The notes beneath the pieces were generated by a model. The model saw only the letters and a list, made by a program, of their open reading frames with translations. It was not told the origin of the DNA and did no database searches. A stretch of DNA of 64,000 nucleotides from the NCBI RefSeq assembly GCF_046119375.1, contig NW_027362764.1, positions 151,404,001 through 151,468,000 on the forward strand. The letters are read 5' to 3'. Positions 11,671 through 55,771 of this stretch are shown here, piece by piece (the first letter of the stretch is position 1; each line of letters starts with the position of its first letter). This stretch comes from Phyllobates terribilis. Its lineage: Eukaryota. Both the position numbers and the translations under genes were made by a program.

Positions 11671-13162
11671 GGGATATTGTCAAAATTGGGGGACATTACC
11701 CCTATACCAGTGTCAGCAGAAGACCCCCCTCCCCCTTAAAAGTGCATCATGAACACATTTTTTGCTTACATTTTTTTTTTCCTCCTCTAAAACCTAGGTG
11801 CGTCTTATGGTCCGGTGCATCTTATAGTCCGAAAAATACGGTAACCCCCCCATTGCAAATTAGGTTTATTAGCAACATTTAACATTTTTCTGCTACTTCT
11901 AATAAACCAATAAAAAAGAAACAAAAAAAATTTAAATAGATCAGCAAAATTAATAACAAGTGTTTTTTTTATAAAACAAAAAAATGCCACTTTTGATGGG
12001 TACCACAGTCAGCCAGTGAAAAAAAAAGAGTACTCATCTCACTTGTTCCACCATTCCAGCCAGCCATCTAGTCCTCTGCACATCCAGTCCTTAATATATC
12101 CTATTTGGCCCTTCCGTCATCTTGGCTCAGTACCAAGGCCACATATTATGCACTCAACTTGTGAGGTGGATCCTCTAAGTCCATGTCCGGTGGGCACACA
12201 GATCCCGGTCGTTGATGCAGCAGGCAAATGAGGCACGTGGGAAGCAAGGACTAGAAGCACTGAAGGCTGCAGGCCAACAGGACACTGTAAAGCAGGTATG
12301 GAGCAGGTACTAGAAGCACTTGAAATTGCAGGCAGACAGAACACTGGAAAGCAGGCATGGAGCAGGTACTAGAAGCCTTGAAAACTGTAGGAAGACAAGG
12401 TGTCAGAAAGCAGATATGGAGCAGGTACTAGAAGCACTGGAGTTCGCAGTGAGACAGGAGATGGGAAAGCAGATATGGAGCAGGTACTAGAAGCATTGGA
12501 GTCTGCAGTGAGATAGGAGATGGGAAAGTAGGTATGGATCAGGTACTAGAAGCACTGTAGACTCCTGACAGAACACTGGAGAGCAGGTATGGAGAAGGTA
12601 CTAGAAGCACTGAAGGGCATAGTGAGACAGGACAAAGGAAAACTATAGGTCTTAATTAGTGTTGAGCCACCCCCGTAGTGTTCGAGTTCGGTTCGGTTCG
12701 TCGAACACCCGTGTGTTCGCCGAACTGTTCGTCGAACTGTTCGTTGAACACCTTCGAACACTGTTAAAACCAATGGCAGGCAAACAAAAACACATAGAAA
12801 CACATAGAAAACACCTTCAAAGGTGTCCAAAAGCTGACGAACTGCTCTGAAGACACAACTAACACATGGAAAAGTGACAAGTACATATAGTCATGCGAAA
12901 AGAAAAGAGGTGGAGGAGTAAAGGGAGGGGGAGACACAGATATAGGCATGTCATGCCCTTCTAAAATCCAAAAAGTGAGAAGCCGACACGTTCAGTCCGC
13001 TCCTGCCCGTGTCACCTCCGTGTCGCCGGGTTTGTGCCAGAGCCGCGGTGAACCCTGACGGCCAGCCCCCCTCTCCCAATACTGGTGCCTGTCCGCTGGT
13101 GGGTCGAGCGAGCCCCCCTGTGGTGGAGGCAACTCTAAGCTTTTTAATTTAAATTGTCTCTC

Positions 13163-16800: not shown

Positions 16801-17239
16801 TTTGGGGGATCTAAGAGTGTGGCAACCCAGTAGTCATGATTACTTCGAATTCTGACAATATGAGGATCATGTTGCAGGTAGTGCAGCAAGAAGGCACTTA
16901 TGTGTCTTGCGCATCTCGGAGCCCCAAAATTATTTTCCGGGCTAGATGCAGCTAAAAATTATTATTAATTTTAAATCTGGTGGAGCTTAGTATAGATGGC
17001 CTAATAGGATCAGTGCTGCACACTTCTACAAAGCCCAAATTATTTTCCAGCCAAGATACAGATAAACATGATTAGTAATTTTAAATCTGGTGGAGCTTAT
17101 TATAGATGGACTAATAGAATCAGTGCTGCACACTGCTACAAAGCCCAAATTATTTTCCAGCCAAAATACAGATAAACATGATTAGTAATTTGAAAGCTTA
17201 AAACGGTTGGTAGGGAGATTTTAACCAATCATCCATCTT

Positions 17240-18904
17240 TTACTCTCCCCAGGATGACACACGGGTAGAAAAGTCGTTTCGGATCCATGATTTGTTCATA
17301 TTTATGAACGTGAGTCTGTCTACATTATCAGTGGAGAGCCGCGTGCGCTTATCTGTCAGCACACCACCAGCAGCGCTGAACACACGTTCAGACAGAACGC
17401 TGGCTGCGGGGCATGACAAGATCTCCAAGGTGTAAGTGGCTAGCTCCGGCCATTTATCCAGATTGGAAGCCCAAAAAGAGCAAGGGTCCAGTGACACAGT
17501 CATGGCTTCAATGTTTACTTGGAGATACTCCTGTACCATCGTCTCTAGGCGTTGACTATGTGTCAGACTTCTTATCTCCTGTGGCCTTGCAAAGGATGGG
17601 CTAAAAAAGTGGTGAAATGATTGCGCAAAATTGATGTTACCAGCAGATACTGTGGTTCTGTTATGGTTTGAGTGCTGAACACTTGACGGTCCCACGGTTG
17701 GCAAGTTGGAACTGTGAGATTCACTACGTGCACCACTGGTGTTTTGTGGAAAAGCACATGTAAGATTCTGCAACAGTCTCTGCTGATACTCCTGCATGCG
17801 TGCATCCCTTTCTATGGCAGGAATAATTTCTGTAAATTTACTTTTGTACCGGGGATCTAACAGTGTGGCAACCCAGTAGTCAGGATTATTTCTAATTCTC
17901 ACAATTCGAGGGTCATGTTGCAGGTAGTGCAGCAAGAAGGCACTCATGTGTGTTGCGCATCCAGGAGCACTAAGTCCCTGTTGTGTTGGTGGCGAGGTAA
18001 CAATCATGCTTCCTTCCTCTGTCCTCTCCCCCCAACCTCGCACAACAGAAATGTGATCAAGGTCTCCCTCATCTGATGAGTCTTCCATCAGTTCGTCCTC
18101 CACTTCTTCCTGGGCTCCTGCACCTTCCTCACTAGTTTGGCTGCTACCATGCGCCCTGGTAAAACCATCTCCCCCACCCTCACATGCCTGCCGCCTTGGT
18201 GCTGCCGACCGTCTGGACCTTGCAGATGTTAGCCCTTCCGCATACAACTCCTCCTCCTCTACTTCCTCCACCTCCTCTTGTGCCACCACCTGACTCCGAA
18301 TTCTGTTTAACATGTGCTCCAGCATGTAAATCACCAGAATAGTCATGCTGATAATGGCATCGTCAGCACTAAACATCTTTGTCGCCATTTCAAAACTGTG
18401 CAGAAGGGTGCATAGGTCCCTGATCTGAGACCACTCCTCCAGCGTGATTTGTCCCACGTCTGGACCTCGTTGGCCCAGGCTATACGTCAGAACGTATTGC
18501 ACCAGGGCTTGTCGGTGATGCCACAGTCGCTGCAACATGTGCAGAGTTGAATTCCACCGGGTAGGCACATCGCATTTTAGCCGGTGAAGTGGCAGGCCCA
18601 ACGACTTCTGTAGAGATCTGAGTCGCTGAGCTGCGGGATGCGAACGGCGGAAGTGAGCACACAGCGACCGTGCCCTCTGCAGAAGGCCATCTAGTCTGGG
18701 ATAGTGGGCTAAAAATTGCTGGACAACCAGGTTCAACACGTGAGCCATACAAGGCACGTGTGTGACATTGCCCCGGCGAAGGGCCGCACCCAGGTTTGCA
18801 GCATTGTCGCACACGGCCTTCCCTGGTTTCAGGTCCAGTGGAGACAACCATTCATGAAATTGGTTCTCCAGAGCTGACCACAACTCCTCAGCTGTGTGAC
18901 TCAC
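17240..18904 (-). CDS. C-terminal half of the hAT transposase (554 aa open frame) with catalytic E and dimerisation domain
   Basis: AVCDNAANL, CMAHVLNL (CxxH), PTRWNS, YWVATLLDPRYK, WPELATYTLEILSCPAASVLSERVFS..RTRLS. Upstream TAG near 18921 and truncation at 18972 by a second hAT end. Confidence 0.92.
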   Translation of the reverse strand: MSHTAEELWSALENQFHEWLSPLDLKPGKAVCDNAANLGAALRRGNVTHVPCMAHVLNLVVQQFLAHYPRLDGLLQRARSLCAHFRRSHPAAQRLRSLQKSLGLPLHRLKCDVPTRWNSTLHMLQRLWHHRQALVQYVLTYSLGQRGPDVGQITLEEWSQIRDLCTLLHSFEMATKMFSADDAIISMTILVIYMLEHMLNRIRSQVVAQEEVEEVEEEELYAEGLTSARSRRSAAPRRQACEGGGDGFTRAHGSSQTSEEGAGAQEEVEDELMEDSSDEGDLDHISVVRGWGERTEEGSMIVTSPPTQQGLSAPGCATHMSAFLLHYLQHDPRIVRIRNNPDYWVATLLDPRYKSKFTEIIPAIERDARMQEYQQRLLQNLTCAFPQNTSGARSESHSSNLPTVGPSSVQHSNHNRTTVSAGNINFAQSFHHFFSPSFARPQEIRSLTHSQRLETMVQEYLQVNIEAMTVSLDPCSFWASNLDKWPELATYTLEILSCPAASVLSERVFSAAGGVLTDKRTRLSTDNVDRLTFINMNKSWIRNDFSTRVSSWGE

Positions 18905-19466
18905 ATTTCCCAGACATTTCTAAGTAAAAACCGCCTGATGACGTTGAGCCCTACTGCCAGCATAGTAAGGAGTAGTGTTGAGCCACCCCCGTAGTGTTCG
19001 AGTTCGGTTCGGTTCGTCGAATACCCGTGTGTTCGCCGAACTGTTCGTCGAACACCTTCGAACACCGTTAAAACCAATGGCAGGCAAACAAAAACACATA
19101 GAAACACATAGAAAACACCTTCAAAGGTGTCCAAAAGCTGACAAACTGCTTAGAAGACACAACTAACACATGGAAAAGTGACAAGTACATATAGTCATGC
19201 GAAAAGAAAAGAGTTGGAGGAGTAAAAGGAGGGGGAGACACAGATATAGGCATGTCATGACCTTCTAAAATCCAAAAAGTGAGAAGCCGACACGTTCAGT
19301 CCGCTCCTGCCCGTGCCACCTCCGCGTCGCCGGGTTTGTGCCAGAGCCGCGGTGAACCCTGACGGCCAGCCCCCCTCTCCCAATACTGGTGCCTGTCCGC
19401 TGGTGGGTCGAGCGAGCCCCCCTGTGGTGGAGGCAGCTCTAAGCTTTTTAATTTAAATTGTCTCTC

Positions 19467-21738: not shown

Positions 21739-23108
21739 CACTGTGTTCCAAATTATTATGCAAAAAGTGTTTAGGAGTGATAAGGGAAGAATTTGTTTGT
21801 TTGTCAGTTAAACTCATTGATGGTGATGTGTGTCAGGGCTCTTTATATCACTGTAAGCAATTGCAGACACCTGTGCTAATTAGTTTGGCAGGTGTGTCCA
21901 ATGAAAGGCAAGACTACTTAAGAAGGCTGTCTCACATTATTAAGCAGCCTACATTTTCTGCCAAAATGGGAAAGAAAAAGGATGTGTCGGCTGCTGAGAA
22001 GCAACAAATTGTGGAGTGTTTAGGTCAAGGCATGACTACAATCAACATTGTGCGATGATCAGGATGAAGTGTCTTGGCAATCAAGAAGTATGTAGCTGAT
22101 TCACAGTACACACGTGTGCGTGCTGATAAGGGCAAATTGAGGACTCTTTCCTACAGGCAATTACGTCAGGTTGAAAGAGCAGCGGCAAAAAAGCCTTGTC
22201 ATAGCAGCAGACAAGTTTTTGAAGCTGCTTGTGCCTCCAACGTCCCCCGAACAACAAGATGCAGGGTCCTTCAGAGGTTTGCAGCTGTGCATACGCCATC
22301 CTGTCGACCTCCTCTATCCACTTCACACAAGCAGAAACGGCTCCAGTGGGCCAAACATTACATGAAGACTGATTTCAAAACTGTTTTGTTCACGGATGAG
22401 TGCCATGCAGCGCTCGATGGTCCAGATGGATGGAGTGGAGGATGACTGGTTGATGGACACCCCACGCAAACACGGCTACAGCGCAAACAAGGAGGAGGTG
22501 GAGTAATGTTTTGGGCTGGAATCATGGGGAGAGAGATTGTCGGCCCCTTTAGGATCCCTGAAGGCGCTAAAGATGAACTCCATAATGTATGTGGATTTTC
22601 TCAAACAGCACTTCCTGCCATGGTTCAAGAAGAAGAACCGTGTATTTCACAGCAAGATCATTTTTCTGCATGATAATGCACCATCTCATGCTGCACATAA
22701 AACATCTGCATCTCTGGCTGATATGGGCATAAAAGGGGACAAACTTATGGTGTGACCCCCATGCTCCCCTGACCTCTACCCCATTCAGAACCTTTGGAGC
22801 ATCATTTAAAGGAGTGTCTATGATGGCGGGAGGCAGTTCACATCTAAGCAACAGCTCTGGGAGGGTATTCTGTCCTCATGCAAAACAATTGAAGCAGAAA
22901 CCATCCAAAACCTGACAAATTCAATGGACGAGAGAGTTCAGAAGCTCCTTTCGAACAAGGGGTCCTATGTGAAAATGTAACATCACCTAGAATAAAGTTT
23001 TGAGTTGAAAACTGTTTGATTTCAGTTTCTAACAACCTGCTAATGCTTATAATTTCAAAAATGACCATTTTTTTGGTCTTTATTAAAATTAAAAGGTTGA
23101 TCGAAAAG
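21739..23108 (+). mobile_element. 3'-truncated DD37E (TRT-type) Tc1, copy B (decayed transposase 21966-22980)
   Basis: Same TIR, TA site and truncation point as 15431-16800. Confidence 0.88.
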
Positions 23109-26100
23109 TTTGGGGGATCTAAGAGTGTGGCAACCCAGTAGTCATGATTACTTCGAATTCTGACAATATGAGGGTCATGCTGCAGGTAGTGCAGCAAGAA
23201 GGCACTTATGTGTGTTGCGCATCCAGGAGCACCAAGTCCCTGTTGTGTTCGTGGCGAGGTAACAATCATGCTTCCTTCCTCTGTCCTCTCCCCCCAACCT
23301 CGCACAACAGAAATGTGATCAAGGTCTCCCTCATCTGATGAGTCTTCCATCAGTTCGTCCTCCACTTCTTCCTGGGCTCCTGCAACTTCCTCACTAGTTT
23401 GGCTGATACCATGCGCCCTGGTAAAACCATCTCCCCCACCCTCACATGCCTGCCGCCTTGGTGCTGCCGACCGTCTGGACCTTGCAGATGTTAGCCCTTC
23501 CGCATACAACTCCTCCTCCTCTACTTCCTCCACCTCCTCTTGTGCCACCACCTGACTCCGAATTCTGTTTAACATGTGCTCCAGCATGTAAATCACCGGA
23601 ATAGTCATGCTGATAATGGCATCGTCAGCAATAAACATCTTCGTCGCCATTTCAAAACTGTGCAGAAGGGTGCATAGGTCCCTGATCTGAGACCACTCCT
23701 CCAGCGTGATTTGCCCCACCTCTGGATCTCGTTGGCCCAAGCTATACGTCAGAACGTATTGCACCAGGGCTTGTCGGTGCTGCCACAGTCGCTGCAACAT
23801 GTGCAGAGTTGAATTCCACCGGGTAGGCACATCGCATTTTAGCCGGTGAAGTGGCAGGCCCAACGACTTCTGTAGAGATGTAAGTCGCTGAGCTGCGGGA
23901 TGCGAACGGCGAAAGTGAGCACACAGCGACCGTGCCCTCTGCAGAAGGCCATCTAGTCTGGGATAGTGGGCTAAAAATTGCTGGACAACCAGGTTCAACA
24001 CGTGAGCCATACAAGGCACGTGTGTGACATTGCCCCGGCGAAGGGCCGCACCCAGGTTTGCAGCATTGTCGCACACGGCCTTCCCTGGTTTCAGGTCCAG
24101 TGGAGACAACCATTCATGAAATTGGTTCTCCAGAGCTGACCACAACTCCTCAGCTGTGTGACTCACATTTCCCAGACATTTCAATGTAAAAACCGCCTGA
24201 TGACGTTGAGCCCTACTGCCAGCATAGTAAGGAGGTGTGCAGGATCCCTTCTGCGCAGTTAGAAAGCTTGTGGCATGACCAGACAGGCTTTGGGTGCAGG
24301 TGGAGGACCGAGAGGAGGTTGAGGAGGCAGAAGCAGTGGAGGAACTTTGACATAAAGAGGATTGACGCACAACTCGTGGGGACGGCAAGACTTGGACAGC
24401 AGCCCCTTGTCCTGCTGTCACCATAGTTACCCAGTGCCCAGTCAGCGACATGTAACGCCCCTGTCCATGCCTACTCGTCCAAGTGTCTGTGGTGAAATGC
24501 ACCCTGTCACACACAGAGTTTCTCAAAGAAGCGGTGATGTTGTGTGCGACATGCTGGTGGAGCGCAGGCACACCTTTCTTTGAGAAGTAGTGCCGACTGG
24601 GCATCTGGTACTGGGGCACTGAGACGGACATAAGGTCTCGAAAATCCTCTGTGTCCACCAGGCGGAAAGGCAGCATTTCTGTAGCCAAGAGCTTGCAGAT
24701 GGTGAAATTCAACCTCTTAGCTTTCTCATGGCTAGGAGGAAATGGTCTTTTACTTGTCCACATCTGAGGGACCGAGGGCTGGCTATTGTGCTTAGACGGG
24801 GTTGATAAGGGTGTCCCCGGCAAACTGCCGGTCTGTGAGGAAGATGCAGGCGGACATGTTAGGTTGCCTTGATCCAAAGGTGGTGCTATCGATGTCGGAC
24901 AGCGCTCAACACCAGCTGGTGTTACCACCTCCAAAGAAAATGATGACCTGCCAATCACGCTGGCTGTTGCAGGTAAAGAGGTGGCAGGTCTGCGCCCCAA
25001 AACAGGTGTGACTGCTGTCCCCCCAGTCACAGAGGATGAAGAGGCCGCGGATGCACAAGATATGGCAGACGGTGGTTGGCCCGGCCGGCTAGGCCGCATT
25101 GTAGCACACTGAGCTTCCCACTGCAACTTATGCTTCATGTCCATGTGCCGGTTCATGCATGAAGTACTCAAACTATGTATTTTTTGGCCTCTACTTAGCT
25201 TTTGCTGACAAATGTTACAGATAACACGAGTTGGGTCATCTTTATCGATCTGAAAAAATGCCCAGGCTATGCAAGGCTTAGCACCCAAGCGACCTGAAGA
25301 GCCACCACGACTTGTGGTGAGAGGCAGAGTTGTGTTTGAGGATGCAGTTGTTGACGTGCTTCCAGTACTACGTCTCTGTCCAGGAAGGCGCAACCTGACC
25401 TCGTCGTCACTAGCATCTTCCTCCACCTCCTCTGCTGACCTCATCTCTTGGCTGACTGTGGGTTGACAGTAAGTGGGATCTCCAACCTCATCATCATCAC
25501 CCTGTGCATTATCACACCCGTCGTCCTCAGAGCCAACCTGTTCCTGCCCTGACAAAAAACTAAAGTTGTCGCTCCAATCAGGAATTTGAGTCTTATCATC
25601 GTCTTCCTCATTGTCTCCACCAACAGGAGCTACAGTTTGGGAATGAGGGTCTACATTATGGTCAGAACCTTCTGCGTCTGGTCCTGGATCCGACTCATAA
25701 AGATTCTGGGCATCAGTGCAGATCATTTCCTCGTCTGGATTCACAGAAGAGCTGGAGTCGACCTCTGATTCCCAGGCTATAGTATGAGTAAACAGCTCTG
25801 CAGACTCAACCATCTGTTCTACCTCATACTCAGACGGGCAGCTGGAGATTTGGGAGCTGTGAGGAAGCAAGTGCGATTGGGGTGACACCTTTGAGGACTG
25901 GAGTATTTGTGATGATGAAGTTGATGTGGAGGAGAGCCCACTTAAAGGAGCACTTGATATCCGTTGAAGCACCTGCTGTTTTTGTGCCTCATCTGGAATT
26001 TGTAGCGATTGGCGTGGCCGTAAGAAAGGGATCTTATCACATTGTCCGCTAAAAGAAGTAGACATTTTAGTTTGGCTGGAAGATGGTCTTTCTTCTGCAG

Positions 26101-26203
26101 ATGTTACTGTTGCTTTAACACCTACCCCACGGACACAACCTTTTTTCCCCTTCCCAACACGCCTATTCCCCTTTCCACCAGCAGCAGGCCTTTTTCCACT
26201 CAT
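22844..26203 (-). CDS. BED-finger hAT transposase, aa 1-1030, fused in frame to 89 aa read from the antisense TRT sequence; lacks catalytic E and dimerisation domain
   Basis: Basic N-terminus, acidic/Ser-rich region, BED finger (AWAFF..CNIC..RHMDMKH), VPQYQMPSRHYF, FTTDTWTS, AVCDNAANL, CMAHVLNL, PTRWNS. Homology ends at YWVATLLDP (23114). Confidence 0.93.
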   Translation of the reverse strand: MSGKRPAAGGKGNRRVGKGKKGCVRGVGVKATVTSAEERPSSSQTKMSTSFSGQCDKIPFLRPRQSLQIPDEAQKQQVLQRISSAPLSGLSSTSTSSSQILQSSKVSPQSHLLPHSSQISSCPSEYEVEQMVESAELFTHTIAWESEVDSSSSVNPDEEMICTDAQNLYESDPGPDAEGSDHNVDPHSQTVAPVGGDNEEDDDKTQIPDWSDNFSFLSGQEQVGSEDDGCDNAQGDDDEVGDPTYCQPTVSQEMRSAEEVEEDASDDEVRLRLPGQRRSTGSTSTTASSNTTLPLTTSRGGSSGRLGAKPCIAWAFFQIDKDDPTRVICNICQQKLSRGQKIHSLSTSCMNRHMDMKHKLQWEAQCATMRPSRPGQPPSAISCASAASSSSVTGGTAVTPVLGRRPATSLPATASVIGRSSFSLEVVTPAGVERCPTSIAPPLDQGNLTCPPASSSQTGSLPGTPLSTPSKHNSQPSVPQMWTSKRPFPPSHEKAKRLNFTICKLLATEMLPFRLVDTEDFRDLMSVSVPQYQMPSRHYFSKKGVPALHQHVAHNITASLRNSVCDRVHFTTDTWTSRHGQGRYMSLTGHWVTMVTAGQGAAVQVLPSPRVVRQSSLCQSSSTASASSTSSRSSTCTQSLSGHATSFLTAQKGSCTPPYYAGSRAQRHQAVFTLKCLGNVSHTAEELWSALENQFHEWLSPLDLKPGKAVCDNAANLGAALRRGNVTHVPCMAHVLNLVVQQFLAHYPRLDGLLQRARSLCAHFRRSHPAAQRLTSLQKSLGLPLHRLKCDVPTRWNSTLHMLQRLWQHRQALVQYVLTYSLGQRDPEVGQITLEEWSQIRDLCTLLHSFEMATKMFIADDAIISMTIPVIYMLEHMLNRIRSQVVAQEEVEEVEEEELYAEGLTSARSRRSAAPRRQACEGGGDGFTRAHGISQTSEEVAGAQEEVEDELMEDSSDEGDLDHISVVRGWGERTEEGSMIVTSPRTQQGLGAPGCATHISAFLLHYLQHDPHIVRIRSNHDYWVATLLDPPNFSINLLILIKTKKMVIFEIISISRLLETEIKQFSTQNFILGDVTFSHRTPCSKGASELSRPLNLSGFGWFLLQLFCMRTEYPPRAVA

Positions 26204-26299
26204 TTTGGTGGTTAACTAATTCACAACTCTGGAGTTGTTTGCACAAAAAAACAATGGATGGGAACCGAGCAGAGCTGAGTGGCCAAACTGTGGTATTAG

Positions 26300-28355
26300 G
26301 CCAAAACTATTGGCTGGGTTAGATGCAGAAAAAAATTATATTCAATTTGCAACCTGATGGAGGTCAGTATAGATGGACTAATAGAACAAGTCCCACACAC
26401 AGCTAGAAGCCCAAATATTTTTTCAGAGGTAGATGCAGAAAAAAATATATTCAGTTTGCAACCTGATGGAGGTCAGTATAGATGGACTAATAGAGAAAGT
26501 CCCACACACTGCTAGAAGGCCAAATATTTTTTCAGAGCTAGATGCAGACAAGAAATTATTTTGAATTTGCAACCTGATGGAGGTCAGTATAGGTGGACTA
26601 ATAGAACAAGTCCCACACACTGCTAGAAGGCCAAATATTTTTTCAGAGCTAGATGCAGAAAAAAATTATATTCAGTTTGCAACCTGATGGAGGTCAGTAT
26701 AGATGGACTAATAGAGAAAGTCCCACACACTGCTAGAAGGCCAAATATTTTTTCAGAGCTAGATGCAGAAAAAAATTATATTCAGTTTGCAACCTGATGG
26801 AGGTCAGTATAGATGGACTAATAGAGAAAGTCCCACACACTGCTAGAAGGCCAAATATTTTTTCAGAGCTAGATGCAGAAAAAAATTATATTCAGTTTGC
26901 AACCTGATGGAGGTCTGTATAGATGGATTAATAGAACAAGTCCCACACACAGCTAGAAGCCCAATATTTTTTCAGAGGTAGATGCAGAAAAAAATATATT
27001 CAGTTTGCAACCTGATGGAGGTCAGTATAGATGGACTAATACAACAAGTCCCACACACAGCTAGAAGCCCAATATTTTTTCAGAGCTAGATGCAGAAAAA
27101 AATTATATTCAATTTGCAACCTGATGGAGGTCAGTATAGATGGAGTAATAGAACAAGTCCCACACACATCTAGAAGCCCAAATATTTTTTCAGAGCTAGA
27201 TGGAGATAAAAATTATTTTTAATTTGCAACCTGATGGAGGTCAGTATAGATGGACTAATAGAGAAAGTCCCACACACTGCTAGAAGGCCAAATATTTTTT
27301 CAGAGCTAGATGCAGAAAAAAATTATATTCAGTTTGCAACCTGATGGAGGTGTGTATAGATGGATTAATAGAACAAGTCCCACACACAGCTAGAAGCCCA
27401 ATATTTTTTCAGAGGTAGATGCAGAAAAAAATATATTCAGTTTGCAACCTGATGGAGGTCAGTATAGATGGACTAATACAACAAGTCCCACACACAGCTA
27501 GAAGCCCAATATTTTTTCAGAGCTAGATGCAGAAAAAAATTATATTCAATTTGCAACCAGATGGAGGTCAGTATAGATGGAGTAATAGAACAAGTCCCAC
27601 ACACAGCTAGAAGCCCAAATATTTTTTCAGAGCTAGATGCAGATAAAAATTATTTTTAATTTGCAACCTGATGGAGGTCAGTATAGATGGACTAATAGAG
27701 AAAGTCCCACACACTGCTAGAAGACCAAATATTTTTTCAGAGCTAGATGCAGAAAAAAATTATATTCAGTTTGCAACCTGATGGAGGTCTGTATAGATGG
27801 ATTAATAGAACAAGTCCCACACACAGCTAGAAGCCCAATATTTTTTCAGAGGTAGATGCAGAAAAAAATATATTCAGTTTGCAACCTGATGGAGGTCAGT
27901 ATAGATGGACTAATGCAACAAGTCCCACACACAGCTAGAAGCCCAATATTTTTTCAGAGCTAGATGCAGAAAAAAATTATATTCAATTTGCAACCTGATG
28001 GAGGTCAGTATAGATGGAGTAATAGAACAAGTCCCACACACAGCTAGAAGCCCAAATATTTTTTCAGAGGTAGATGCAGAAACAAATTATATTCAGTTTG
28101 CAACCTGATGGAGGTCTGTATAGATGGATTAATAGAACAAGTCCCACACACAGCTGCAAGCCCAATATTTTTTCAGAGGTAGATGCAGAAAAAAATATAT
28201 TCAGTTTGCAACCTGATGGAGGTCAGTATAGATGGACTAATAGAGAAAGTCCCACACACTGCTAGAAGGCCAAATATTTTTTCAGAGCTAGATGCAGAAA
28301 AAAATTATATTCAATTTGCAACCTGATGGAGGTCAGTATAGATGGACTAATAGAA
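26300..28355. repeat. Tandem array of 19 x 108-111-bp units in the hAT 5' region, with a 4-unit (437-bp) higher-order repeat
   Basis: AACCTGATGG recurs at 26351, 26460, 26571, 26681, 26791, 26901, 27009, 27118, 27228, 27338, 27446, 27555 (AACCAGATGG), 27665, 27775, 27883, 27992, 28102, 28210 and 28320. Confidence 0.95.
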
Positions 28356-30243: not shown

Positions 30244-30632
30244 CTAGCATCCTCAAGTCCCATAAGGTATTGCTTTCATTTGTGAAATTTGCTTGTCCTT
30301 ATCTAGAAAACCTGCTGTCTACATTCTTACTACAAACTGGTAGGGAACCAGAATCCAGATACCCTCTTGTACTAGACTGTACTAAACTGTACAGTGCTTA
30401 TTTCCAGAGCAAACATATGTGGGAATAGTTCCCATTTGGCCAATGTTTCAAAAATATCCATTGGAGTCCTGTTTTTTTTTATTTTACTGATAAGAAAGGT
30501 GCCAGTTAAAATCAGGATATTGATTGATCAAGTTCTTCTTTAGTTTGAAAGTCAGTGAACAAAGAATATGTAAAGGGAAGAAGCAATGGAGTGAACCTGA
30601 AAGAGAGACGATACAGATTATGTAGATATTAG

Positions 30633-30968
30633 TAGGGGTAAATTTGCTCCTTATGGAGAGTGACATGCCAGGTCTGGCACACCATTATGAGGAGGCTTAA
30701 ACGCATGTCACTCTCCATAAGAAGAAAACTTACCCCTTTGATCCCAGTTTTAGCCTCTCACCCAGCCAAATCAGATCTCATACTTTGCATTGACAAGGGG
30801 CAATACCCCGAAACACAGTGTCTGCAAATTGAGATTCTGATTTGGCTTTTATCCTATGTCACATTGCAAGGCTCGTTAAAGGGTAGATATTGACTTGTAG
30901 GATTGCTATTTCAAATAGATGGCACTGGAGTTCAAGTCCTCTTCCTCTCTGAAAAGACAATTTAAATA
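30633..30968 (+). mobile_element. 336-bp ribozyme-bearing retroposon (retrozyme- or Penelope-derived)
   Basis: Flanked by an 11-bp direct repeat GTAGATATTAG (30622-32, 30969-79) that restores the CR1 frame when the insert is removed. Contains a perfect 19-bp stem (30650-68 / 30703-21) and a hammerhead. Confidence 0.8.
30764..30847 (+). ncRNA. Type I hammerhead ribozyme, U3-A8 core variant, predicted GUC cleavage after 30822
   Basis: Stem I TTTGCA / TGCAAA, extended by TCTCA / TGAGA and AGCCAAATCAGA / TCTGATTTGGCT. Core TTGACAA; stem II GGGG-CAATA-CCCC; GAAA; stem III ACA-CAG-TGT; C17. Confidence 0.8.
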
Positions 30969-31660
30969 GTAGATATTAGAAAAAACTTTTTGACAGTGAG
31001 GGTGATCAATGAGTGGAGCAGGCTGCCATAAGAGGTGGTGACGAGTTCTCCTTCAATGGAAGTCTTCAAACATAGGCTGGACAGACATCTGTCTGAGATG
31101 GTTTAGTGAATCCTGCATTGAGCAGGGGGCTGGACGCGATGACCCCGGAGGTTTCTCCCGACTCTAACATTTTATGATTCTATGAATACAGACATATCTG
31201 TATATTGCTGAGTTGGATCAATCTGCAGACAATAACAGAAAAAAATGCATCCTATTTAAAAATAAATAAATGAATATGTCAATCCAATAATAACAACAAT
31301 TTGGAATTGTATGATTTTTGTGGCAGATCTATGAAAGAATACAAAGTTATACCAATGCCATGGGCCAAGAGAACTGGCTAAAGTAGAATGCACAAGCAGC
31401 CAACCTGCAATTGCAACCTGTTATTATTTTCTGTAGATTATCAGTTTCTATTAGATATCATTCACACTCTCAAAGTTGTATGGAGCCAAACTATGGCACA
31501 CATTTATAAGGCTATAGTGTACCTCTGCATACCTCCAATTTCATGTAGAACAAAAATGTGCCATTTGAATCCATATTACAGACAGCATAACTTTGTAGCC
31601 ACATGAAGGCACAGTATGGTAGTCATTTAGCCTACAGTTACATAGTAGAGTCATAGTTAA

Positions 31661-32487: not shown

Positions 32488-35400
32488 TCATTGCAGGCTG
32501 TAAGCTTTCTTGAAGAGATGGGTTTTCAGGTTCCGTCTGAAGGATCCGGATGTGGTGGATAATCGGACGTGTTGAGGCACAGAATTCCATAGGATGGGGG
32601 ATATTCGGGAGAAATCTTGGAGGCGATTGCGTGAGGAACGGATAAGTGTGGAGGAGAGAAGGAGGTCGTGGGAGGACCGGAGGTTACGTGAGGGAATATA
32701 TCGGGAGATTAGTTCAGAGATGTACGGAGGAGAGAGGTTATGGATGGCTTTGTAGGTCAGTGTTAGTAGTTTGAACTGGATGCGCTGGGCAATTGGGAGC
32801 CAGTGAAGCAATTGGCAAAGGGGGGTAGCAGAGGAGTAGCGAGGTGAGAGATGAACGAGTCATGCAGCAGAGTTGAGGATGGACTGGAGGGGTGCGAGAG
32901 TGTTAGCTGGGAGGCCACAGAGGAGGATGTTGCAATAGTCGAGGCGGGAGATGATGAGGGCATGCACAAGCAGTTTAGTAGAGTTAGGGTTGAGGGAAGG
33001 GCGGATTCTGGAAATGTTTTTGAGCTGGAGGCGACAGGAGGTGGCGAGAGCTTGGATGTGGGGTTTGAAGGACAGGGCAGAGTCAAGGGTTACTCCGAGG
33101 CAGCGGATTGTCGGTACAGCGGAAAGAGTGATGTCGTTTATTGTGATAGATAGATCAGGTGGGGAAGATATGCGAGATGGGGGAAAGATAATGAGTTCAG
33201 TTTTGTCCACATTGAGCTTGAGGTAGCGGGAGGAGAAGAAGGAGGATATGGCTGCTAGACATGCTGGGATTCTGGACAGCAGAGAGGTGATGTCTGGGCC
33301 AGAGAGGTAGATCTGGGTGTCATCAGCGTACAGATGGTACTGGAAGCCATAGATTTTTATGAGCTGTCCCAGGCCAAGGGTATAGATTGAGAAGAGTAGG
33401 GGTCCTAGGACAGAGCCTTGAGGGACTCCAACAGAGAGGGGGATGGGTGAGGAGGTGTAGTGGGAGTGGGAGACGCTAAATGTGCGGTTTGAAAGGTATG
33501 AGGAGATCCAGGATAGAGCAAGGTCTTTGACGCCAAAGGAAGAGAGGATCTGCTGTAGGAGGGAGTGGTCAACTGTATCGAAAGCAGAAGACAGGTCAAG
33601 TAGAAGGAGTACAGAGAATTGTCTGTTAGCTTTGGCTGTAAGTAGGTCATTGGTGATTTTGGTAAGGGCAGTTTCGGTGGAATGGTGGGGGCGGAAGCCG
33701 GATTGTCGGTTGTCGAAGAGAGAGTTAGATGAAAAGTGGGAGGAAAGTTCAGCGTGAACGTGTTGCTCAAGGAGTTTGGAGGCAAATGGGAGCAGCGATA
33801 TGGGGCGATAGCTGGACAGGGGAGTTGGGTCGAAGGATGGCTTTTTGTGGATGGGTGTGATTGTGGCATGTTTGAAGGCAGCAGAGAAAGTACCAGAGGA
33901 TAGTGATAGGTTGAAGAGATGGGTTAGGGATGGGACGAGTGTGGGAGTGATGTTAGGGAGGAGGTGGGATGGGATGGGGTCGAGTGCACATGTGGTGAGG
34001 TGTGATTTGGAGAGGAGACGAGTAAGTTCTCTTTCCGTGATGTTGGGAAGGGAGGTTATAGGGGTGGGAAAGTGGTGTGGAAGACAGAGGGGTTGTGGTG
34101 GTCGGACGGTAAAGACTTGCCTTGTTTGGTCAATCTTGTTTTTGAAGTGTGTTGGAAACTCCTCAGCAGAGATGATGGAGCTTGGAGGGGGCAGTGGAGG
34201 GCGGAGGAGAGAGTTGAAAGTGTTGAATAGTTGTTTGGGGTTGTAGGATAGGGAAGATATGAGGGTTGTGAAGTAGGCCTGTTTAGCAGAGGTGAGTGCT
34301 GATTTGAATGCGAGCGTTGCTTGTTTGAATGCAGTGAAGTCATCTTGAGTATGTGTTTTCTTCCAACGCCGCTCCGCAAACTTGGACGTTTGTCGAAGCT
34401 GTTTAGTAAGGTTGTTGTGCCAGGGTTGCCTGTTGACTCGTCGCGCTCTGCCATGCAGAAGAGGGGCGACCGAGTCAATAGCTGATGCGAGAGTGGCACT
34501 GTAGAAAGCAGTGGCGCAGTCTGTGTCATGTGAGGATATGGATGTCAGAGGTAAAATAGAGTCAGAGAGTGTTTGTGTGTCTAGATGAGCAAGGTATCTG
34601 CGGGGGTGTGCTAGTTGCTGGACATGGGTGACAGGTGAGGAGGACAGGGATGAGAATGTGAGTAGGTGGTGGTCAGATAGGGGTAGGGGGGAGGTTGTGA
34701 GGTGGGATAGGGAGCAGAGTCGGGTGAAGATGAGGTCTAGTGTGTGTCCGTCTGTGTGAGTGGCTGAGGAGGACCACTGAGTAAGTCCAAAGGATGAAGT
34801 AAGCGACAAGAGTTTTGATGCTGCTGACTGGCGAGTGTCAGTGGGGATGTTGAAATCGCCCATGATGATTGTTGGAATGTCAGCCGAGAGAAAGTGAAGA
34901 AGCCAGGTGGAGAATTGGTCGATAAAGGCAGTGATCGGGCCCGGGGGTCGGTATATGACAGCCACTTGGAGGTTGGAGGGAGAGTAAATGCGGACAGAGT
35001 GGACTTCAAAAGAAGGGAGAATAAGGGAGGGAAGAGGAGGAGTAGGGCTAAAGGTGCAATTGTTAGAGAGGAGAAGACCCACTCCTCCACCATGTCTGTT
35101 TCCAGGGCGAGGAGTGTGGGTGAAGTGGAGGCCACCGTAACACAGCGCAGCAGGGGAGGCAGTGTCAGAGGGTGTTAGCCATGTCTCTGTGATGCCCAGG
35201 AAGGAGAGATGACGAGAGGTAAAGAGGTCGTGGACAAAATGGAGCTTGTTGCAGACAGTGCGTGCATTCCAGAGTGCTCCAGAGAGAGGGAGCAGCGGGG
35301 TGGGCGTCAGGGGGACAGGTTTTGCGCAAGAGAGGTTGTGGTAGTTTGCAGTTGGTTTGATGCGACAGGTGGGAGAATTGGTGGAAGGTGCAAGCTGTGG

Positions 35401-35661
35401 GGGTCCAGGATTGGGAGATATGTCGCCAGCAGTGAGGAGAAGCAGAGAGAGGGACAGCAGGTGGGAGAAAGAGAGTGACCGGCTTGTTTTATGCTTTGGG
35501 AGGATTGTTCTGAGGTTGAGCAGCAGGTCTGTAGATGAGGTTAGGTGGGGAGGAAGGAGGGAAGGAGAGATGATGATTTGGTTAGAGGGTGCTGGGGTGT
35601 GGGGATAGCGAAGGAGAGTGAGGATTAGAGGGGCAAAAACAGTAAGGGCATATGTGAGCAT
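32488..35661 (-). pseudogene. L2 ORF2 (APE endonuclease + RT, ~1057 aa) with one premature stop at 32860-62
   Basis: WNARTV, GITETWL, GDFN, SDH; [46 protein letters not shown] 32488-32811 continues in the same frame after TGA (likely CGA>TGA). Confidence 0.93.
35401..35427 (-). other. 2A-like (StopGo) motif GDISPNPGP near the N-terminus of L2 ORF2
   Basis: [19 protein letters not shown] directly upstream of the APE domain. The canonical motif is D(V/I)ExNPGP; here S replaces E. Confidence 0.75.
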
Positions 35662-36735
35662 GATGAAAGTGTAAGGGAGAATGAGAAAGAGAATCTAAGT
35701 ACAAGTAGTAAATAGTTCTTTGTACCTTCTGGTCACTTCTGGCCCATTTCTGGCATATTTCATTCTAGCCCCTTAAAAGCGACCCTTTAGAGCCAGACCT
35801 GTTTCCCTTAATTTATGGAGTTCAAGCCAGCACATTAGGATGGTCAGGTGTACAGGAGGGGAGGAGTCGCAGGGAGGCTGCTCACAACATGGGTGAAGGG
35901 GGGACTAATTAGAACACAGAGGTTAAATGAATTCAGGAAACAGCTAGGGACCAGTGTGTATTAGGATCAATGGTTTGAGGTAATGAATATGCAGATTGAG
36001 ACAAACAGACCAAGGACAGATAGAATGAAATTAGCAGGGATCAGTGTATACACAGCAGGAAACATACCAGGAGACAAATACAGTTATGAAATTCAGATAT
36101 GCGGCATGGAGTGTGGTAAAAGTGTGGAGTGTGGAGTATGGTAAAAACATTGGCTTTCAAAATTGTAGAACTGTAAACCCATTAAGTCAGATTCATAATT
36201 TCTTTGGAGCCTTTTTTTGGTATAAAAGTTTGGATTTAAGCAATTTTATTCTTCTGCCAAATTCATTATGGCTGTTGTTTGCAATTTTTGTGCTATATTT
36301 TTCAGTTCCCTTCATTTTTTGGCTTTGCTCGTCAATGTAAGGTTGGTTTTCATTTCCATATGTTTTTGGCTAATTCATCAATTGAAACTTTTCGAAATGT
36401 TACAAAAAAATTTTGCGCAGTGGTACTCCAGCAGGGGCTGGATGGCAAATTTTAGCCTGGAGGGCGAGCACAGAGAGCTGGCCCATGAGTGGTTTCCCAT
36501 TCTTAGAGCTTGTTTGCACGCTGAGTTTGACGCATTTTTCAAGAATAAAAAAAAACAAAACAGTGCACTCACTTTACAGCAGTGTAAATGAGATTCCTGA
36601 AATCTCCTTGTGGATTTGAACCATCAAAGCGTTTTTTCAAATCTGCAGGAAGAACCTGTTGTAACTGTATTCAGTTCAGGCAGTGAAAGAGGAGGAGGCA
36701 AGATCAGTACGTGTCCTGCCAGTGATGTGGAGTAC

Positions 36736-41335: not shown

Positions 41336-41494
41336 CAACCCCATCACAACCCTAACCCCAACCCTAACCCCAACCCCAGCCCTAACCCTAGCACAACCCT
41401 AACCATAGCACAACCCTAACCCTAGCACAACCCTAGCCCTAGCACAACCCTAGCCCCAAACCCAGCCCTAACCCTAGCCCAATCCTAACCCAAG
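41336..41494. repeat. Degenerate telomere-like (CCCTAA/CCCTAG/CCCCAA)n tract
   Basis: Directly visible hexamer variants interleaved with CACAA. Confidence 0.85.
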
Positions 41495-50651: not shown

Positions 50652-53600
50652 TTAATCCCTATACCTGGCAGGGATTTGGCCTTGTGTGCTGTATGTGGAC
50701 CTTCGTAGCACTGGGGTGATACTGGTGTCTGTGCATGCACTCTCTGTTAACCTATCAGGTGTACGTGCTGGTAGATTATAAAACTGCCTTAATCTCTCTA
50801 TGGGACTGGCAAGTGCTCTGATTACTGGGCCTTCAGGCTCTGCCTCAACGGGTGATCCTCCTCTTACTGGGGACTCTTCCTGTTCCTGAGCAGGTTCTTC
50901 TAGGGCGCTCACAAGTTCTTCTTGTGGTTGACAGAAGTGTATTACTGGTATAATAAATGCTCCATCAAGTTGAGGCCAGTCCGCAGGGAAGTCTCCTAGA
51001 ACTGTATGAAGTACATCTTCCTTGGGTTTCTCCGGCATTACAAGAGGTGCTTCTTCCTCCGGTGTCTTCAGTAGACCTGGGCACAATTTCAAGTGGTCTC
51101 TTGAGATTGTTGCGGTTGTTTTACCTCCTTCCTTGCTGATCAGGCAGGTTTTGGTGTTGTCAAATTTGGAATTTAACACTGTGTAGGGCTCTCTTTCCCA
51201 CTGGTCATTGAGCTTGTGACCTCTCCTTTTCACCTTGAGCACTATCTCTCTGGCTGCCAAGGGTCCTGCTGGTGCATGTTTGTTATGCTGCCCTTCTTGT
51301 CTTTCCCTCACCTTGTTTAGACTGTCTTCGACACAGGCCTGTACTTTCCTGTACTGCTCTTGCCGACTTGTCTCCCAATCTTCAGTAGACGTATCTGCAG
51401 CAGGTTCTACCACTCCGAGCTCCAGGTCCATGGGCAATTTTCCAGGTCTTGCTCTCATGAGGTACGCTGGGGTACAATTAGTAGAACTCACAGGTATGTG
51501 GTTATACAGGTCCACTAGGTCATGTAGTTTGTCTGGCCACTGGTTCCTCTCCTCCAAAGGTAGGGTTTTTAACAGGTCTATAACGATGTTATTCATTTTC
51601 TCGCACATACCGTTGGTTTGCGAATAATATGGCATAGTTCGGATCTTCTTGCATCCATACAGGTGACAGAATTCTTTGAATAGCTCAGCTTCAAAAGCAG
51701 GGCCTTGATCTGTGAGCACCTTGTCCGGCTATCCATGGGGTCTGCAGAAGTAGGCTTGAAACGTTCTTGCTGCAGTTTCTGCTGTCAGATCCTTGACGGG
51801 GGCTAGCACCAGGAACCGGGAATAGTGATCCACTATGGTCAGGGCATAGGAATAGCCTGATCTGCTGGGCGACAGTTTGATGTGATCCAGAGTGACAATC
51901 TCCAGGGGTTGGGTTGTCTTGATGGACTGCAAGGGTGCTTTCTGGCTGCCGTAGTCTTTCCTTCTGAGGCTATAGGGCCCACAATTCCGGCACCACCTTT
52001 CTATGGAACTCCGCATTCCAGCCCAATAGAACCGGTCCTTCAGCAGGGTTTCCAGCTTCTTCCAGCCAAAGTGACCTGCTTGGTCGTGGTAGGCCTCTAA
52101 CACCATCTGGATATCCGTCCTGGGTACAACAATCTGCCACACCATTTCATGGGTTCTGGGGTTGACATACCTTCTGCACAGCTTTTCTCTGTAGATGAAC
52201 AGCCGGCTTCTCTCATTCCACAGGTGTTTGGCTTGTGGAGGAGCATCCTTCTCCAGGTGAGAACCTTATTGGGTTATCAGTCCTTTGTTGAGGCTGACAA
52301 CCGGGTCACTATCCTGGGTCTCCTTCCAACTGTGATGAGGTAAAGGATTCAGCACCTACCATGACAAATCTTCTGGAGGCGTGTTGCTTGTGGACCACTC
52401 CGCTTCTGTGGAAAGCAGGTAATTCAACTTCTTCTAGGTCATCCACTTCATCCTCGGTGTCTAACTGGTGGGGCATTCTTGACAGAGCATCAGCGTTGGT
52501 GTTCTTGTGACCTGCCCGGTACTTGTGAACTGATAATTCAACAGTCTGGCCACCCAAAGCTGTTCCATGGCTCCCAACCTGGCTGTCTCCAGGTGTGTCA
52601 AGGGATTATTGTCGGTAAAGGCTGTGAATTTGGTTGAGGCTAGGTAATGCTTGAATCTTTCAGTGATAGCCCAGACCAAGGCCAGGAACTCCAGCTTGAA
52701 GGAACTGTAATTCTCCAGGTTCCTCTCAGTAGGGCGAAGCTTCCTACTGGCTTAGGCAATTACCTTTTCTCTGCCGTTTTGCTTCTGGGACAACACAGCT
52801 CCCAGTCCCTCGTTGCTGGCGTCGTTGTACAACAGGAAAGGTTGGCTGTAGTCGGGGTAAGCCAGGATTTCCTCAAAGGTTAGGACTTTCTTCATCGATG
52901 CAAAGGACTCAGTCTGCTCTTTGCCCCACTGGAAAGGGGGACTTTTTCCTCTTTTGGACTGTCCTACCAGGAGATCTTGTAGAGGTGCTGCCTTTTTGGT
53001 ATAGTTCTTAATGAACCTCCTGTAGTACCCGACCAGTCCTAGAAATTGACTTACTTCTTTGATGTTCCTTGGTTCAGGCCACTTCTGGATGGCAGTGACC
53101 TTCTCCGGGTCTGGTGCTACTCCCTCTGAGCTGACCACGTGTCCCAGGTACTGAATCTTCTGCTTGAGCAGGTGGCACTTAGAAGGTTTTAGTTTCATCC
53201 CATACCGGGACAATGCCTCAAATACCTCCGCCAGGTGCTTCAGATGGTCTTCATACGTCCTCGAGTACACGATAACGTCATCTAGGTATAGCAGCACTGT
53301 CTCAAGTTCTGGTGTCCCAAGCAACACTCCATCAACCTCTGGAACGTTCTGGGTGCGTTGCAGAGTCCAAATGGCATGCTGTTGAACTCGCATAATCCCA
53401 TCGGGGTGGTGAAGGCTGTCTTCTCCCGGTCTTCCTCAGCAACAGAGACTTGCCAGTACCCGCTAGTGAGATCCAATGTAGAGAAATAATTGGCAGATTT
53501 TAGTGCAGCCAGGGATTCCTCTATACGGGGAAAAGGGTATGCATCTTTATGTGTTATTCGATTAATTTGTCTATAATCTGCGCAGATCCTCATGCTACCA

Positions 53601-54676
53601 TCCTTCTTTCTGACCAGGACCAGGGGAGCTGCCCAGGGGCTACAGCTATCCCTTACTACCCCTGCCTTTTTCATGTCATGCAACATTTCTTTGGCTTTTT
53701 GGTAATGTGCTGGTGGTATGGGTCTGTAACGCTCCTTAATGGGTGGATGGTTACCGGTGGGTATGTGGTGTTGTACCCCTTTAACCCTTCCAAAATCAAG
53801 TGGGTATTTACTAAACACCTGTTCATATTCCTGAACCACTCTGTAAACACCATGTTTCTGATGGACAGGAGTGGCGTCAGTCCCAACATGGAGCTGTTGA
53901 CACCATTCCTCCAGCTGAGCTTCGGAGTCATTGTCCTCCACTGTATCCGGTGGGGTCAAGGATTCCACTGTGTGTATGGCATCATTATTCACAGTATACA
54001 GTCTGGCAACAGTGGCGTATCGTGGCAATTTAACTTCCTCCTCCCCGCAATTTAGGAGATGTACGGGTACCCTCCCATTGCGCACATCAACTACCCCTCT
54101 AGCAGTTAGGAGTGTAGGTCTGTGCTCCGAGTTGATGGGCTCTACTACCGCCTGGTAGTTCTGTCCCTTGAGACCTATTGCTGCCCTACACCAAATCAGC
54201 ATTTCACTCATTGGGGGAATCACAATGGGCATCGGGTCTGTCACCCGTACATTTCTAATCTCACCACCTGTTAGCTTTACCTGTTGCTGGTTCAGGAGGG
54301 CACGAATTTCCTTCTGGAGCACCTTCCTCTGCCCTGGTTTGGCAGTGTCAGCAATCTGTTGTAGTAAAAACAACACTTCTCCCAAACAGTTACCAACAAC
54401 ATTTGTTCCAAGTATCATATATGAATTTGCATCACCAGGGTTAGATTCTATGACAATCAGTCCTTGGTCCTTTAGTTCCACTCTCCCCACCTTCACTGTC
54501 ACGTCTTTAACCCCTACCAGGTTAAGAGGAAGGCCATTGGAGGCATACACAGAGAGATTTGGGGCTGGCGGCTGGAGTTCATCTATGGACCAGTACCTTT
54601 TGTAGAGGACATCAGGTATGATGGTTAACTGTGAGCCGGTGTCCAGTAGTGCAGGTGTTGCTATGCCGTCCAGCAC
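50652..54676 (-). pseudogene. Gypsy pol (protease, RT, RNase H, integrase) broken by frameshifts and stops
   Basis: LLDTGS; WAAPLVLV, LDLTSGYWQV, MPFGL, YLDDVIVY; DASNEGLGAVL, TDNNPL; HDQAGH..CRNC, LDHI, TDQGPAFE, NGMCEKMN. Confidence 0.93.
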
Positions 54677-54738
54677 GATGGACAGGAAAGGCCTTCCTCC
54701 TATGAACCGGTCGTACCAGCTTGATGGGCCTGGTTGAT

Positions 54739-55771
54739 CTACTCCTGGGTGTCGGCCCTTGGCCCCAGGGTTTGCCCGTTTAAAGGACAGATCCGCGCTG
54801 TGTGGCCTGTCTCATGGCAATGGCAGCAGATGAGTTCTCCTGGAGGGCGACATTGGTCGTTGGTCCTACCATGGGGTGGCGTTGTCCTCCTTCTTCTCTT
54901 CATCCAGGAGATATCCTCAGGACTATCGGCGAGTAGGATCCTTCCATTCGGCTCGGGCTCCACCTGTAGCTGCAGGGCGCTCAGGACAGTGGTCAGGGTT
55001 TTACTTAGCTGACGCACTTCAGAGCGCAGGCTGTCCAGTTCTCTGGGGGGCGCTGTTTGCACTTTTGTCTCAGCCGCTAATGAAGGGGCAGTGAGTGTTG
55101 TGGCCATTGGGGTGGCCCCACCCTGGTAACGCTGGGTAGAAGTATCTGATGTTTCCAGGGGCTGAAGGCCCTTAATAGCCATGTCCTTCAGGGTGTCCAA
55201 GGGGGCATTTGGATGATCTAAGGCCCTCCACCGTACAGTTCTGCTCTCCTCCTGGGACCTCAACCGCCGGATGAATTGTTCTGTCAGCATTTTGTTCTCA
55301 TCATGTATGCTGGCTGGACTAACCTGTTTCAGGGCCCGCAGTGCCTCTTGTAGACATCAGGCATAGTCCCAGATACTGTCCTCAGGTTTCTGGGTACAGT
55401 GGTAGAACCTCATTCGAAGATCTGTCTCAGTGCGGTTTTCAAAGGCAGTTTGCAGTCTCTTAAATAGTTTCAACTTCCCGCTCTGCGGCACCAGTCAATT
55501 GTCCCAGCACAACAGCGGCTCTCTGTTTACCAGTCATTGAGTACATGTCTAATACACCGCATATTTTCCTTTTGAATCCAGACAGGGTGTCTGGTTTGCC
55601 GTCATACTGGGGAAGCCATTTCGCTCCGGGGATATACGGTAGGGCCATGGGTATCAATGGAGTCACGACCCCTGCTGGTGGGGCAGTCGCTCCGCACTGA
55701 GCAGCGCCGGGCGCAAGTTGAACATCGGGAGCGTTAACTGGTGCTCTGGCGTCTTGCTGGTCATCGGCCAT
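54739..55771 (-). pseudogene. Gypsy gag (frameshifted) with CCHC zinc knuckle
   Basis: MADDQQ start, WLPQYDGKP, and CCHCHETGHTARIC knuckle. Confidence 0.85.

Follow-up and report, generated by a model that had tools for sequence, protein, structure and literature searches.

We analyzed a 64-kb window of the Phyllobates terribilis genome, in which a single hammerhead motif is present. It lies within a 336-bp insertion that is bracketed by an 11-bp target-site duplication (TSD), GTAGATATTAG, and that splits the decayed 3' end of a LINE, which we take to be CR1-like (Table 1). The flanks of the insertion translate as a LINE ORF2-like C-terminus, and a CR1-like copy without the insertion (locus L039) carries the target sequence a single time. 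These data confirmed a discrete insertion with an 11-bp TSD in a CR1 tail, as proposed in the first-pass annotation. The hammerhead parts listed there (core letters, stem II, GAAA, a 3-bp stem III, the GUC site and a stem I of about 23 bp) were also all found in place. The longest stop-free frame in the insertion has 83 aa, and the insertion does not contain the RT and GIY-YIG ORF of an autonomous Penelope-like element (PLE).

Table 1. Features of the insertion and its surroundings (window positions)
Feature	Position	Strand	Basis
Host, decayed 3' end of a LINE (taken to be CR1-like), split by the insertion	30579..31186	+	uninterrupted copy in L039; translated flanks
Left TSD copy, 11 bp	30622..30632	+	sequence; L039, an insertion-free CR1-like copy, has the target once
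Whole insertion, 336 bp, 42% GC; head-to-head join of two family-unit pieces	30633..30968	.	
Inverted 72-bp piece, unit 292 to 35; ends 3' at end-site B (left boundary)	30634..30705	-	
"19-bp hairpin", unit positions 1-35 twice in opposite orientations; absent from the tandem unit	30650..30721	.	
GCA, a 3-nt microhomology shared by the two joined pieces, adjoining the natural 11-bp hairpin of the unit	30703..30705	.	
Forward 266-bp piece, unit 1 to 266; ends 3' at end-site A (right boundary)	30703..30968	+	
Type I hammerhead: stem I, core, stem II, palindromic stem III	30764..30847	+	
Stem I, about 23 bp: 6 bp, UAC/U internal loop, 17 bp	30764-30789 with 30823-30847	+	
Core U3-U4-G5-A6-C7-A8-A9 (TTGACAA); U3 and A8 are private changes from family C3 and G8	30790..30796	+	
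Stem II, 4 bp, G-C closed, loop CAAUA	30797-30809	+	
GAAA	30810-30813	+	
Palindromic stem III, 3 bp around CAG; predicted cleavage after C17 of GUC, 30822	30813..30822	+	
Right TSD copy, 11 bp	30969..30979	+	sequence

The 336 bp had been taken for a unit, whereas tandem copies elsewhere give a unit of 328–332 bp, and mapping on this unit resolved the window copy into two pieces, positions 292-35 in minus orientation joined head-to-head to positions 1-266 in plus orientation. The perfect 19-bp hairpin reported upstream of the ribozyme is indeed present in the sequence, within the inverted arms 30634-30668 and 30703-30737; however, it exists because the inversion doubles unit positions 1-35, and is thus an artefact of the inversion junction that lies outside the RNA unit of the family. 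Folding of the 336-mer gave z=-6.95, and without the inverted piece z=-3.1.

A search of the 10.57-Gb assembly with an exact 23-nt core pattern yielded at least 3,739 matches and the reversed control pattern yielded none; therefore, the family is not a product of chance. A first-look search of the same assembly returned 5,214 candidates, 40 of which were scored. The 23-nt pattern is matched exactly by just 12 of the 39 units in BLAST-picked loci; the true family size may therefore, as a rough estimate, be near 12,000. A 34-nt pattern (63 genome matches) added no information. Two subfamilies were distinguished, an older one with a tandem unit of 328 bp and a younger one with a unit of 332 bp; 34 columns distinguish the two majorities, and the identity of copies to the majority of their own subfamily is 91.5% in the older and 95.2% in the younger. 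The window copy is a member of the older subfamily, from whose majority it departs at 16 of the first 261 positions (~6%).

The family is a non-LTR retrozyme, of a kind already reported in amphibians. Its unit falls within the 150–450-bp range, carries one type I hammerhead and occurs in arrays of up to ~4 units. It shares with the retrozymes described by Cervera and de la Pena (2020, PMC7229834) and by Li, Clavereau and Pollet (2026, bioRxiv 10.64898/2026.07.22.740005), among them satellite 2 of newts and the 330/350-bp repeats of the axolotl, a non-coding tandem unit of ~330 bp, a weak palindromic stem III, GC below 50%, TSDs longer than 4 bp and occurrence mainly as monomers and short arrays. 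Thus, the unit, the copies and the tandem arrays agree with the satellite-2-like retrozyme with Penelope links that was suggested initially. In bioRxiv 10.64898/2026.07.22.740005, such retrozymes are reported from 7 of 7 amphibians tested, and 316 bp is given as the mean unit. By the definition of Li et al., the window copy, a single, inverted, decayed unit with one hammerhead, does not count as active; other family loci (for example, L113 and L123) do. The family consensus tables of that study may contain the window family or a relative.

Family-related sequence also occurs in contigs of sequencing runs labelled with seven organism codes; the runs, available as contigs only, are guessed to be RNA, with none on record listed as such. 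In one run (X1), a deep contig joins end-site B (window position 30634) to just before the cleavage site (30821). This junction had no exact match in the P. terribilis genome; in another organism, it could stem from a subfamily with a deletion or from RNA processing.

The family shows a type I hammerhead, with its core conserved and stem I open. In an alignment of 77 distinct rows, 94.3% of the cells in the 31 pairs of the type I core and three stems are paired. One stem II pair is swapped between the subfamilies (of 182 units, 99 have C-G and 62 have G-C), and the covariation score over these 77 rows, which were partly chosen by the exact pattern, was 0.086 vs 0.060 after shuffling; this stem II covariation may reflect one ancestral event. 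The expected covariation among copies was therefore seen in stem II but not, above chance, in the 3-8 pair, for which the five U-A cells of the alignment stem from deliberately enriched rows. The covariance-model search that had been proposed fails to detect the motif, as an Rfam scan of the region gave no hammerhead family at E<=10.

Folding estimates suggest how such a ribozyme would act. Stem III has a pairing probability of 0.003 in the monomer and an estimated self-duplex energy of -7.0 kcal/mol. In natural arrays, the dimeric fold was better than two monomeric folds by 11–12 kcal/mol in four of six adjacent unit pairs and by 6.0–6.5 kcal/mol in the other two. The family hammerhead is thus predicted to cut only as a dimer, in agreement with the earlier suggestion that the short stem III implies dimeric cleavage, and this preference matches PMC7229834, in which amphibian retrozymes are reported to require a dimer. 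Among Xenopus retrozyme dimers, one of nine cleaved in vitro (bioRxiv 10.64898/2026.07.22.740005). A weak hint comes from three family loci (L041, L158 and L159; two independent, none with a TSD) whose 3' ends lie at the predicted cleavage site, stopping one base past it. The core is intact in 91 of 176 sampled units, roughly half being broken, and young arrays retain identical intact cores.

The ends of the family copies carry an insertion signature. We took 90 loci in order from the chromosome-1 pattern list and kept 85, after removal of L043 and L049 (overlapping L042 and L048) and of L037, L130 and L159 (duplicated flanks). Outer 3' ends were concentrated at two places: site A (unit 262-278) accounted for 61 of the 114 and site B (unit 33-52) for 33, so that 94 ends fell within windows covering 11% of the unit. 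Sites A (~266) and B (~40) are ~100 nt apart, B being downstream, and a poly(A) or simple-repeat 3' end was found at neither site in the 85 loci. The 5' ends were scattered and richer near the natural hairpin (63 of 207 segments at unit 290-9), with no cluster at the cleavage site.

Head-to-head inversions, as in the window copy, were detected in 30 of the 85 loci. Twenty of them had one end at A and the other at B and none was A/A or B/B (p about 1e-6), whereas ten had at least one off-site end; a set of 30 BLAST-picked loci contained one A/A (L018) and one B/B (L015) insertion. Many of the inversion junctions are far from the natural hairpin. A TSD of 8–15 bp flanked 34 of the 85 loci and 16 of the 20 A/B loci, compared with 1.7% of mismatched-flank controls, and an exact TSD was absent in 51 of the 85. 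The TSDs are 69% AT. Microhomology between target and template averaged 2.5 nt at both A and B vs 0.6 nt when shuffled (13 and 14 of 16 scorable). Private variants were common to units in 26% of cases within one insertion vs 8% between insertions, most variants being unique to one unit; both a circle and an uncut linear multimer would fit this sharing as templates. In the literature searched, mostly non-subscription papers, neither fixed end sites nor one-of-each inversions were reported for any retrozyme, and the accessible text of PMC7229834 and bioRxiv 10.64898/2026.07.22.740005 describes neither fixed end sites nor inverted insertions, unlike what we observed in the window family.

This pattern carries the insertion signature of Penelope, that is, an inverted, 5'-truncated copy and an extension at one end only; PMC8557442 and PMC3846280 list the inverted 5' copy and the one-sided tail among Penelope traits. 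As an in-genome comparison, we examined PLEs of P. terribilis itself, where a Neptune-type family is very abundant (34,188 first-look candidates). An autonomous element of this Neptune type (L200-L239; for example, L221, L231 and L236) carries a minimal hammerhead, and its 3' ends lie at two places ~40 nt apart. Four of five candidate inverted insertions were used, L237 being excluded as its two ends do not belong to one insertion, and three of these four TSD-flanked insertions use one of each end; the TSDs are 12–14 bp. The corresponding "tail" is ~100 nt in the window family vs ~40 nt in this element, and the published papers give a PLE tail of 30–40 nt.

The likeness extends to EN+ PLEs in general (Penelope/Poseidon, Neptune and PAc of Anolis; PMC11167929), with which the window family shares a hammerhead-bearing repeat, 5' truncation, partial tandems, the inverted 5' copy, the one-end extension, AT-rich targets and two internal RT start sites. 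It differs from them in having no ORF, a canonical rather than minimal hammerhead and the ~100-nt extension. In PMC11167929, the anole Penelope protein is reported to nick and extend both target strands and to start at two internal RNA sites; it is predicted to form a dimer, and hammerhead cleavage is dispensable for insertion.

We also searched for a PLE that would carry the family. Partner loci were chosen by a GIY-YIG family search together with a Neptune-type protein search, and among 110 PLE-centred loci (of >34,000 candidates) no autonomous PLE with a repeat homologous to the window unit was found. None of the PLEs sampled in the P. terribilis genome is homologous in sequence to the window family. 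By comparison, 24 of 57 Xenopus retrozyme families are homologous to PLE terminal repeats (bioRxiv 10.64898/2026.07.22.740005). Family copies in or near PLEs (L098, L229 and L239) were considered as terminal repeats and rejected, since they are independent insertions. Sequence common to the flanks beside element ends, considered as a clue to the carrier, consisted only of duplications or unrelated repeats. One family copy (L098:2504-2934), with a B/A inverted layout and a 12-bp TSD, lies within the RT region of a Neptune-type element.

Taken together, the window copy is a decayed copy of a non-coding tandem repeat of 328–332 bp, with a type I hammerhead predicted to act only in dimers, and it was probably inserted by the RT and GIY-YIG nuclease of a PLE. 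Against this reading stand the search of 110 PLE-centred loci that yielded no partner, the longer "tail", the single A/A and B/B loci, the off-site ends and the loci lacking an exact TSD. The sequence of events that we propose is as follows. Tandem arrays would be transcribed, and adjacent hammerheads would pair through the palindromic stem III, cutting out monomers, which may then circularise. A Penelope-like protein would nick both target strands 8–15 nt apart, and the target 3' ends would anneal to the RNA by a few bases, one at A (~266) and the other at B (~40). The two cDNAs would join head-to-head through microhomology, giving the window copy and its hairpin. It is possible that this double priming is programmed, with a dimer of the PLE RT priming both strands on one retrozyme RNA, perhaps a circle, and always using one each of A and B; we put this forward tentatively, with its chances somewhat short of even.

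An unlikely alternative within PLE-mediated insertion is that fold-back self-priming at the natural hairpin of the unit, instead of priming from the other target strand, produces the inverted piece. Self-priming was proposed for palindromic head-to-head PLE junctions (PMC3846280), and both the 5' ends enriched at unit 290-9 and the window junction lie in this region. However, fold-back leaves the fixed site B and the microhomology observed there unexplained, and it does not account for the many junctions distant from the hairpin.

A different carrier, a LINE (CR1, L2 or L1) generating the inversions by ordinary twin priming, is improbable. L1 twin priming produces a like head-to-head geometry with similar TSD lengths, and in these respects the family agrees with it. 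In addition, LINEs are abundant, the 110 loci contained no PLE partner, and PMC7229834 leaves LINEs open as carriers. However, neither A nor B ends in poly(A) or a simple repeat, the second priming site is fixed rather than scattered, and the one-of-each rule holds also in the Neptune-type PLE of the same genome. Just as improbable is the view that the repeats are only satellite-like remnants left by old Penelope terminal repeats and multiplied at the DNA level, with the hammerhead no longer in use. The broken cores, the 5' ends with no cluster at the cleavage site and the insertion of the anole PLE without its hammerhead (PMC11167929) would suit this view, but the copies are dispersed, TSD-flanked and variable at the 5' end, the stems are kept in two subfamilies by compensatory or one-sided changes, and the young arrays have identical intact cores.

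The feature that had first drawn attention to this copy, a U3-A8 pair in place of C3-G8, was interpreted as a compensatory variant. To place it, we counted the 3,739 genomic cores, in a census that covers only copies with exact flanks in the 23-nt pattern, and obtained 3,406 C3G8, 238 C3A8, 86 U3G8 and 9 U3A8. The nine U3A8 cores (0.24%) compare with 6.3 expected under independence (Fisher p=0.29; odds ratio 1.5). In a tree of 165 rows, for which positions 3 and 8 were masked, the eight U3A8 rows trace back to a common ancestor only at the root; they fall in both subfamilies, are never mutual nearest neighbours, and several have further core lesions. At 30790 and 30795, the bases are C and G, respectively, in four runs from three other organisms. 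The family state is C3-G8, and the U3-A8 of the window is not a selected variant but a coincidence, because its frequency is near expectation and its carriers are polyphyletic. U3 and A8 would have arisen after insertion by two independent transitions, A8 at a CpG. In a local array (L068 and G000:C7:126181143-126186156), U3 recurs in five listed cores, a decayed variant that spread in tandem.

In other systems, U3-A8 occurs naturally as an active covariation (PMC3088659), and ~1,300 PLE motifs in Schistosoma contain it (PMC4209133); core letters 3 and 8 of these natural hammerheads, including the Cercyon PLE motifs, are identical to those of the window copy. The pair is frequent in those systems, whereas in the window family it is polyphyletic and at chance level. 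That it is nevertheless a selected compensatory variant marking an active subfamily, which its activity elsewhere and the odds ratio above 1 might favor, is highly improbable in view of the census, the tree and the runs of the other organisms, and also because a predicted misfold, in which the core pairs with the cleavage strand, is strengthened by A8 (pair probability 0.64–0.88, vs 0.38–0.68 for the matching misfold in two C3-G8 copies). The window copy has no neighboring partner hammerhead and, by these predictions, is likely a poor ribozyme on its own. The flagged feature is ordinary decay within a known class of amphibian repeats, and in high-copy repeats a lone "compensatory" pair calls for a census of copies before it is interpreted.

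The carrier of animal retrozymes has so far been argued from homology and co-occurrence. If double priming is true, it would provide mechanism-level evidence that PLEs carry animal retrozymes without sequence homology, and it would explain the one-sided tail and inverted repeat of Penelope generally. A 330-nt RNA whose two priming sites are mapped, and whose genomic products number in the thousands, makes both the carrier and the origin of the Penelope inverted repeat and tail directly testable in an existing in vitro system.

The rest of the window is also rich in mobile sequences. Of 12 long frames scanned for domains, two had no match and ten were of transposon type. A zf-BED frame (22844-26215) and a frame with a hAT dimerisation domain (17240-18919) are present, and 110-bp tandem arrays (26320-28355 and 16927-17195; also found in L169 and L175) lie beside the hAT-type frames. 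On the minus strand, an open frame of 944 aa that encodes endonuclease and RT domains and shows strong GC skew (32860-35694) is possibly a young LINE, and broken frames resembling an LTR retrotransposon, with protease, RT and RNase H domains, occupy 50652-55356. A degenerate interstitial telomere-like tract, (AACCCT)n, is located at 41348-41491.
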